Translations under genes and position numbers: made by a program
Notes under the pieces: model-generated
What the model saw: the letters and a program-made list of their open reading frames with translations, nothing else
What the model was told of the DNA's origin: nothing
Databases searched by the model: none
Virus record (IMG/VR): IMGVR_UViG_2671180753_000008
Source of the DNA: a virus
Taxonomy: Duplodnaviria > Heunggongvirae > Uroviricota > Caudoviricetes
DNA: 6,703 bases
Reading direction: 5' to 3' (one strand)
In this document: one piece after another, positions 5,877-6,703 of the stretch
Layout of the letters: each line of letters begins with the position of its first letter
Numbering within the stretch: the first letter of the stretch is position 1

Positions 5877-6060
5877 GTCTGTAACAACCGAACTGATAGT
5901 CTGCCAGACCCGCCATAACCAGCTGGGTCAGTATTAACTGGCAGCGTTCGCGTGAAAGGTAAGTATTCTGCGCTATCTCCCCGACTGTCGCCGGTTCGGT
6001 AACGCTTAATTCATTAAACACCACTCTGGCGGTTTCTGTCATATCCTGCTGTTTTAGCAT
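5863..6060 (-). CDS. Small hypothetical protein (65 aa), possible helix-turn-helix or winged-helix DNA-binding protein
   Basis: Good Shine-Dalgarno (GGAAAAGGAAAAG ending about 4 nt before the ATG). Segment TVGEIAQNTYLSRERCQLILTQLVMAGL looks HTH-like. Sits between the tR'-like terminator and the methyltransferase. Confidence 0.45.
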   Translation of the reverse strand: MLKQQDMTETARVVFNELSVTEPATVGEIAQNTYLSRERCQLILTQLVMAGLADYQFGCYRRLPQ

Positions 6061-6178: not shown

Positions 6179-6204
6179 ATAAAAAACCCGCTCGGCGGCG
6201 GGTT
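6179..6204 (-). terminator. tR'-like rho-independent terminator downstream of the late promoter
   Basis: Minus strand reads AACCCGC-CGCCGA-GCGGGTT followed by TTTTAT (U-run of 6 counting the stem end), about 45-65 nt downstream of the predicted start site. Confidence 0.65.
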
Positions 6205-6239
6205 GTAGAAACTCTTCTAACGTCAGGCATAAAACGCCC

Positions 6240-6279
6240 ATCGTTATGACGAATTTACCACAGATTCCGGAAAAATCAA
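6240..6279 (-). promoter_or_regulatory. Lambdoid late promoter pR'-like with qut/pause-type initial transcribed element
   Basis: Minus strand reads TTGATT (6274-6279), 16-bp spacer, TAAATT (6252-6257), then CGTCAT AACGATGGG. This parallels phage lambda pR' as I recall it (TTGACT ... TAAATT TGACTC AACGATGGG). Located 6 bp after the upstream ORF stop. Confidence 0.6.
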
Positions 6280-6284
6280 CCTTG

Positions 6285-6703
6285 TTACCTAGTTACCTTT
6301 TTTAACTGCCGCTCAGCCCATGCTTCTTCAATATCAAACCGGGTCACCAGCGCATCATAAAATTTCTTAACTGTTTTTTCCCATGACGCGCGTGTTATCT
6401 GGTTTGTCACCTCGCATATAGCATTAAATGCCTCCGTTGATGGTAGTCTTTCATAGCCACGACCACCACAACGCTGGCAGTCTCTGATAACAGGCATACC
6501 ACGTTTTACCGACTCTTCACGATGAATGGCGACACCACGCCCACGGCAATCCTTACAGGCGGTGGAAACCTCACCCTTTCCGCCACACTCCGGACAGGCA
6601 ACTTTTACCACCTCCCTGACTTTTTTCCATTCTTCCCAGTAAGACGGATACACACCTTTCGTACACTTTGCCCATACCGGCGGCTTACCATCCGGATACT
6701 GGA
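6285..6703 (-). CDS. Putative Q-type late antiterminator, zinc-finger protein with CxxCxGxG repeats; 5' end lies beyond the right window edge
   Basis: Frame is open from 6703 down to the stop at 6285 (the track start at 6653 is a GTG, not the true start). Three CxxCxGxG motifs (CPECGGKG, CKDCRGRG, CQRCGGRG). Called Q mainly from its position directly upstream of the pR'-like promoter, not from sequence recognition. Confidence 0.45.
   Translation of the reverse strand, partial: QYPDGKPPVWAKCTKGVYPSYWEEWKKVREVVKVACPECGGKGEVSTACKDCRGRGVAIHREESVKRGMPVIRDCQRCGGRGYERLPSTEAFNAICEVTNQITRASWEKTVKKFYDALVTRFDIEEAWAERQLKKVTR

Follow-up and report, generated by a model that had tools for sequence, protein, structure and literature searches.

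The question raised by this locus is whether a zinc-finger open reading frame on the minus strand of a 6,703-nucleotide stretch of viral DNA (referred to here, at its full length, as the window) forms, together with the sequence that follows it, a late-gene switch of the kind used by phage lambda. An earlier note on this DNA had proposed a putative Q gene, a pR'-like promoter with a pause-type element and a tR'-like terminator, arranged according to the lambda Q-pR'-qut-tR' logic. All of the features described there are present on the minus strand at the positions it gave, and the lambda logic is supported by the protein family of the Q gene product, by a -10 hexamer and pause element that are identical to those of lambda, and by the terminator. 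We conclude that the region is very probably a Q-dependent late-gene regulatory cassette of a lambdoid prophage, built as in phage lambda. The features that we refer to below, with the basis for each in brackets, are:

6285..6703 (-), Q antiterminator gene, C-terminal 138 codons plus stop (PF03589 match and lambda Q alignment)
6274..6279 (-), -35 hexamer TTGATT of the pR'-like late promoter (read directly)
6258..6273 (-), 16-nt spacer TTTCCGGAATCTGTGG, putative Q-binding element with core TTCCGGA at 6272-6266 (conserved motif)
6252..6260 (-), extended -10, TGg (TG at 6260-6259) then TAAATT at 6257-6252 (same as lambda pR' -10)
6237..6245 (-), predicted transcription start (A 6245) and predicted sigma70-dependent pause element AACGATGGG (identical to lambda +1 to +9)
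6219..6245 (-), predicted 5'-terminal stem-loop of the transcript, +1 to +27 (minimum free energy, MFE, fold)
6206..6219 (-), predicted second small hairpin, +27 to +40 (MFE fold)
6179..6204 (-), tR'-like intrinsic terminator, stem 6204-6185, U tract 6186-6181 (terminator scan)
5863..6060 (-), 65-aa ORF downstream of tR' with a weak winged-helix TrmB-like match (ORF list; TrmB E 0.0026, below cut-off)
5851..5876 (-), second terminator-like hairpin and T run, about +370 to +395 (terminator scan)
4654..5712 (-), DNA methyltransferase gene (PF01555, E 7.9e-42)
4623..4651 (-), promoter-like site TTGAAG, 17 nt, TATTAT, just upstream of the tRNAs (scan)
4211..4613 (-), three tRNA genes (CAT anticodon, Arg-TCG, Arg-TCT) with an N run inside (ARAGORN and Rfam)

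The Q reading frame runs off the end of the window, and in the ORF list and its translation it is in frame from 6701 and closes with a TAA stop at 6287-6285. The full protein has 273 aa in relatives, the N-terminal 135 of which lie outside the window, and a check of the reading frame found no frameshift or internal stop in the fragment that lies inside it. The suggestion that this frame is Q was borne out when the fragment was searched against Q antiterminator families, as it matched the Pfam family PF03589, 'Antitermination protein Q' (Antiterm), with an E-value of 9.5e-32 and a score of 109.4 bits against a cut-off of 26.7; the full-length relative scored 180.8 bits. The window fragment is 39% identical to residues 118-207 of lambda Q. 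The copy in E. coli TOE17 (locus L006, 6598-7419) is full length, at 273 aa, and 99% identical to the window Q. Since the N-terminal part is outside the window, its homology to lambda Q was judged on a 99%-identical, full-length relative, which matched the lambda Q structure (PDB 7UBM) with an E-value of 1e-39 in two blocks, query residues 1-113 and 182-273 aligning with lambda residues 1-113 and 116-207, respectively.

The two blocks are separated by an insert of 68 aa, located at the base of the zinc arm. The CKDC and CQRC motifs of the window Q align with C118/C121 and C144/C147 of lambda Q, and the insert adds CPCC and CPEC, giving four cysteine motifs in total, which suggests that there are two zinc sites. 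The zinc-ribbon 'arm' of lambda Q, residues 114-152, touches the far end of the Q-binding element, and the helix-turn-helix 'body' touches the near end (PMC9388147). The insert sits in this arm, and the arm of the window Q would therefore be enlarged. The long-arm form is also found in phi80 Q, in ES18 gp73 and in many prophage proteins, and we assign the window Q, on its sequence, to the long-arm (phi80-like) branch of the lambda/phi80 family. It can also be noted that the window and phi80 Q proteins, each with an insert of 60-70 aa and four CxxC motifs, have a DnaJ-like arrangement.

The 138-residue fragment contains three CxxCxGxG motifs, and we considered the possibility, which the earlier note had named as an alternative to Q, that it is part of a DnaJ-like chaperone. 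The match to the DnaJ zinc-finger family PF00684 scored 32.2 bits against a gathering threshold of 32.7, and the NCBIfam DnaJ model gave only 27 bits against 377; lambda Q itself also gives a sub-threshold DnaJ-type CxxCxGxG match. Because the match is below the cut-off and is given by lambda Q as well, the motifs belong to the zinc 'arm' of a Q protein and not to a chaperone fragment.

Downstream of the Q stop codon there is a predicted promoter, as had been proposed, although the gap between the stop and the -35 hexamer is five bases and not six. The TTGATT -35 hexamer is invariant among 27 distinct leaders of the E. coli clade, and at the aligned position other relatives have TTTACT, TTGCAT or TTGACT. 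The TAAATT -10 is likewise invariant in this clade apart from a single TAAGTT, and is separated from the predicted start by the six bases CGTCAT. When the region was aligned with lambda pR', which reads TTGACT-17-TAAATT-TGACTC-AACGATGGG, the -10 hexamer and positions +1 to +9 were found to be identical. Thus AACGATGGG, which comprises a -10-like hexamer AACGAT followed by GGG, is the same nine bases at the same spacing as in lambda. There, AACGAT (+1 to +6) and the following GGG are an experimentally defined sigma70-dependent pause signal: sigma70 rebinds the -10-like AACGAT to give a pause at +16 that is needed by Q, and the GGG acts in a discriminator-like manner (PMC4005639).

The 16-nt spacer contains a conserved motif, TTTCC(C/G)GAA(T/A)CTGTG, which is kept together with Q proteins that are merely 54-60% identical, and which differs between Q clades. 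In an alignment with phi80 it falls on the sequence TCGCGGA, which the phi80 record labels as Q-binding, and we infer that the motif is the Q-binding element. The spacer also holds a perfect 8-bp palindrome, TTCCGGAA, at 6265-6272 on the minus strand. This palindrome is broken, as TTCCCGAA, in many relatives of the same Q clade, and the symmetry itself is therefore probably not required.

To place these elements in a wider family, we surveyed 160 loci encoding Q relatives, drawn from bacterial genomes and viral contigs, along with eight phages. An automatic scan returned 112 distinct combinations of promoter and leader, 110 of which were kept as true promoters. In these the order of elements is a -35 hexamer, 16-17 nt, a -10 hexamer, 5-7 nt and a pause element, and the cassette layout after Q recurs in about 110 distinct relatives belonging to many genera across the Enterobacterales. 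Across the Q family the promoter hexamers are kept in both position and sequence, and the six bases between the -10 and +1 vary freely; the hexamers on either side of them are fixed. The pause element is AACGAT itself in 60 of 98 distinct leaders. Among 59 representative leaders A2 was invariant and T6 and G8 were at least 90% conserved, A2 and T6 corresponding to the two bases that sigma70 needs most. Positions 3 and 4 of the element were variable, often towards TATAAT (as in AATGAT and AATAAT). This pattern, of conserved A2 and T6, variable positions 3 and 4 and a free gap upstream, would fit a -10-like element that is read by sigma70.

The tR'-like terminator has a stem of seven pairs, five of them G-C, a 6-nt loop and then a T run, and it spans +42 to +67 from the predicted start. 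The predicted RNA, from 6245 to about 6180, is accordingly 64-67 nt in length, in agreement with the expectation of a strong terminator close after the promoter and a very short transcript. A hairpin is conserved at this position in relatives, and 117 of 119 family leaders have a terminator-like hairpin after the start. The terminated transcript has a median length of 65 nt across the family leaders (10-90% range 56-72), and it follows that a 'very short' transcript is typical and that the 194-nt 6S RNA of lambda is the exception. The second predicted hairpin (+27 to +40) contains one pair that is G-C, G-U or A-U among relatives, which is not significant. We also considered a leader peptide, as there is a frame of 22 codons that begins with an AUG at +5 and extends across the terminator, and rejected it: the frame has no ribosome-binding site, stops after two codons in lambda and mEp237, and changes its end with the downstream module.

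It can be seen from comparison with relatives that the terminator also marks a boundary. Window positions 6703-6179 are 99% identical to phage mEp460_ev081, whereas for positions 6204-5850 the matches, at 92-96% identity, are Stx2a phages and others with different Q genes, and the two blocks of homology overlap solely in the terminator hairpin. This hairpin, AACCCGCC...GCGGGTTTTTT, is common to modules with three Q families (PF03589, PF06530 and the 144-aa 933W/Sp5 type), being found at 6179-6204 (-) in the window, at 1501-1530 in L005, at 1069-1096 in L007 and in L011; in PhiR5_1 it comes after a PF06530-type Q, and in the late transcript of Sakai Sp5, beside the 144-aa Q, it occupies +24 to +51. 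As the hairpin is the sole overlap and is common to these modules, the terminator is the joint between exchangeable Q-promoter and late-region units. A 258-nt RNA that ends at a second terminator has been detected in Sp5 (PMC7547250), and the hairpin is therefore not a complete block there. Termination at 6204-6179 of the window may likewise be partial, because the near-identical Sp5 hairpin is read through into this 258-nt RNA.

From the homology with lambda, we propose the following course of events for the cassette. RNA polymerase would start at about 6245, region 2 of sigma70 would rebind AACGAT and GGG within the first nine bases, and the polymerase would pause at about +16/+17. If Q is absent, the polymerase would resume transcription, stop at +42 to +67, where the hairpin and U tract lie, and free an RNA of about 65 nt. 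Once Q has accumulated after induction, it would bind the spacer element between the -35 and the -10 and load onto the paused polymerase, which would then pass tR' and the terminators beyond it without stopping and transcribe the small ORF, methylase, tRNAs, and lysis and structural genes.

For the genes downstream, the claim that everything is expressed only on Q antitermination proved too strong. A promoter-like site (4623-4651) adjoins the tRNAs and lies within an 85%-identical block that is common to the window and Sakai Sp5, where a primary start site driving the tRNAs has been mapped (PMC7547250). Given this promoter-like site of their own upstream, the tRNAs are probably not dependent on Q only. 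The 65-aa ORF is annotated as hypothetical in many Stx2 phages and in TOE17, and as a TrmB-family regulator in one Stx2k phage. The second terminator-like hairpin overlaps the stop codon of this ORF, and could catch read-through. In complete relatives the genes downstream of the cassette are lysis genes or stx2AB, and in E. coli TOE17 the same gene order precedes iraM and lysis genes.

Beyond the tRNAs the window contains IS600 copies, repeated blocks and prophage genes, and no stx. A sequence that matches Rfam STnc100 with 122-133 bits is present three times, at 821-1010, 2210-2399 and 3945-4134 (-), and there are two IS600 orfB copies, at 1170-1988 and 3007-3723 (+), with repeat spacings of 1389 and 1735 nt; these repeats reflect a tandem duplication around IS600 or else an artefact of assembly. 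The N run, at 4438-4515, interrupts a duplicated tRNA and has on each side a copy of the CAT-tRNA 3' part joined to the start of the next tRNA, and with its duplicated flanks it looks like a scaffold gap and not biology. The prophage in the window may be defective, or the assembly may be imperfect.

Two rival accounts bear on whether the cassette acts as a switch at all. According to one, there is no late promoter, the hairpin just ends the early (Q) transcript, and the likeness to lambda pR' is accidental or a relic. It is plausible in itself that the last early gene should be followed by a terminator, and a strict consensus scan found no promoter here, the hexamers scoring 8 of 12, with an extended -10 in addition, where the threshold for a call was 9; it is therefore homology and conservation, and not the consensus score, that speak for the promoter. 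However, the 21-nt pattern in common with lambda, TAAATT-N6-AAYGATGGG, occurs once in the window and was expected 0.03 times from shuffles, the ordered elements recur after Q in the distinct relatives surveyed, with the sigma-critical bases conserved, and phi80 has the same layout with an annotated pR'. We consider this account very improbable. According to the other, the cassette is intact in sequence and lies in a decayed prophage where it no longer switches a functional late operon. In its favour are the IS600 transposase copies and repeated blocks downstream of the tRNAs, and the finding that the closest complete E. coli relative lies in a prophage at ompW with several truncated early genes. 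Set against these are the draft state of the window, in which the N run and odd repeats are partly a possible assembly artefact, the uninterrupted Q fragment, and the occurrence of the cassette in phage genome records, mEp460_ev081 among them. Decay of this kind is a serious possibility, to which we give a little less than an even chance.

A further proposal, compatible with a Q-dependent cassette as an extra function of it, is that the pR'-tR' RNA, with its length of about 65 nt, binds Hfq and works as a regulator in trans, like StxS. The precedent is real: the earlier note had mentioned, correctly, that a pR'-tR' RNA of this name exists, and in Stx1 and Stx2a phages StxS has been shown to bind Hfq and to regulate rpoS and stx1 (Sy et al., PMC7547250). 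However, StxS is a 258-nt RNA from which RNase E produces a 74-nt 3' fragment, its Q partners are of the 144-aa clade (PMC7547250), and the window contains no StxS. When the 258-nt Sakai Sp5 StxS was compared with the window by BLAST there was a single match, over a 24-nt hairpin at positions 25-48 with 87.5% identity, and the functional 74 nt (185-258) had no significant match in the window, the best being 80% over 25 nt (E 2.5). We therefore rejected the presence of StxS, as its functional part is absent and the Q here is a 273-aa PF03589 protein and not the 144-aa type. In favour of a regulatory role one can point to the compact predicted fold (three hairpins, MFE -21.4 kcal/mol, z -2.47), to an RNA end formed by a terminator with a U tract, to an AGAAGAG stretch and to 90% sequence conservation among the 27 distinct E. 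coli-clade versions. Against it stand the lack of sequence similarity to the functional 74 nt of StxS, the result of three permissive Rfam searches, in which no family reached threshold for the leader RNA and the sub-threshold matches were driven by the terminator (IsrK, RF01394, with 16.2 bits against a gathering threshold of 50, and the Trp leader and STnc families, which matched a generic terminator), and covariation within the clade that was not above shuffles; moreover, the promoter, pause and terminator constraints alone can explain the conservation. A regulatory role in trans thus seems to us unlikely.

The Q-dependent cassette remains our preferred reading, and within it the 5' end of the transcript has a feature of its own. 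In the window leader, +1 to +4 (AACG) are predicted to pair with +24 to +27 (CGUU), with an inner helix of GGGCGU and AUGCCU. A stem-loop in the first 23-27 nt is usual in the leaders of loci L015-L174, L001 and L008-L014. We counted 5' pairing from the MFE fold of +1 to +32, with shuffling confined to the tail, and found that at least three of the first five bases were paired in 47 of 59 representative leaders, against 21% of the tail-shuffled versions. In an energy-based permutation over 17 arm classes the 5' arms matched their own downstream region better than they matched the downstream regions of other classes (p ~0.0009). Several changes between genera appear to be compensatory; the cases are AAUGA/UCAUU (L085), AACGG/CCGUU (L060), AACAA/UUGUU (L056), AAUCAUG/CAUGAUU (L070) and AAGGA/UUCUU (YeP2).

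Other observations give less support to this stem-loop. The E. coli tip variants AACAAT, AATAAT and AACTAT, and one Klebsiella locus, are without compensation, and in the ES18-like clade a different hairpin is preferred. When arms were matched to partners more crudely, counting contiguous pairs and accepting G-U, 11 came out better, 8 worse and 19 as ties. In the E. coli clade pairing is present in 97% of cells, which is no better than shuffles; there is no covariation signal here because there is too little variation. In a column-based comparison across the family MAFFT left the 34-nt leaders ungapped and the 3' arms out of register. In lambda, Q-dependent escape from the pause is also influenced, at the level of DNA, by the region +17 to +36 (PMC4005639), and such an effect could account for part of the conservation of the stem-loop region. 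We tentatively suggest that the first 23-27 nt of transcripts in the lambda Q family form a selected 5' stem-loop, with the pause element as its 5' arm and a co-evolving 3' arm, and we lean somewhat against this being so; the evidence for selection is, overall, suggestive only. The likely role of such a structure would be to shield the short RNA and the long late mRNA at their 5' ends against 5'-end-dependent decay, or to organise folding of the leader ahead of the terminator. We did not find such a 5'-terminal stem-loop described in the papers on lambda pR' that we consulted.

These findings assign a prophage module that is very common in E. coli to the class of antitermination switch that is understood best, and give exact coordinates for its promoter, pause element, presumed Q-binding site and terminator. 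Of 5,426 complete genomes, 1,082 contain at least 80% of the 854-nt stretch from Q to the small ORF. The module appears to drive stx2 in at least one sequenced Stx2a phage, and it is relevant to the coupling between induction and toxin expression in phages without the usual 933W-type Q. It should not be annotated as carrying StxS, and the family survey indicates that the typical product of such promoters is a transcript of about 65 nt and not the 194 nt of lambda. On the subject of annotation, the mEp460_ev081 record has two different genes (665-1714 and 2098-2919) labelled 'antitermination protein Q'. The first encodes 349 aa and lies at the position of ydfU/DUF968 in the Stx2_EH1910 and TOE17 loci, and its Q label therefore looks like an annotation error.

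Among known systems, lambda is the reference. Its Q protein is of the same family, the full-length relative aligning with both halves of it at 40% identity in a multiple alignment, and the two cassettes share TAAATT, AACGATGGG, a Q-binding region (putative in the window) between the -35 and the -10, and a downstream terminator. They differ in that lambda Q has 207 aa, whereas the window Q has 273, with the 68-aa arm insert and two more CxxC motifs. The spacer is 17 nt in lambda and 16 nt, of different sequence, in the window, where the -10 is extended by TG, and the terminated transcript is 194 nt in lambda and about 65 nt in the window. Gene 17 (Q) of phi80 belongs to the same long-arm branch, with 41% identity, about 269 aa and four cysteine motifs. 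The phi80 record has an annotated pR', Q-binding site and terminator in the same layout, its TCGCGGA aligning with TTCCGGA of the window, and the leader is short there too, with the terminator at about +46 to +74. However, phi80 has a different pause element, AACGCTGGG, other -35 and -10 hexamers and a 17-nt spacer. The phi80 Q protein has been studied experimentally, whereas that of the window is not known to have been.

StxS of Sakai Sp15/Sp5 is likewise the terminated product of a constitutive late promoter beside a Q gene, and its hairpin at +24 to +51 is homologous to the window terminator over the 24 nt noted above. Closest in gene order is the Stx2a-converting phage Stx2_EH1910 (LC567834), in which a quuQ-type Q, promoter, leader, terminator, 65-aa ORF, methylase and three tRNAs follow one another as in the window, with 89% DNA identity; its tRNAs are followed by stx2A and stx2B, whereas those of the window are followed by IS600 copies and prophage genes. 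The cassette in the window is thus an uncharacterised member of a textbook system, and one that is very common in E. coli.
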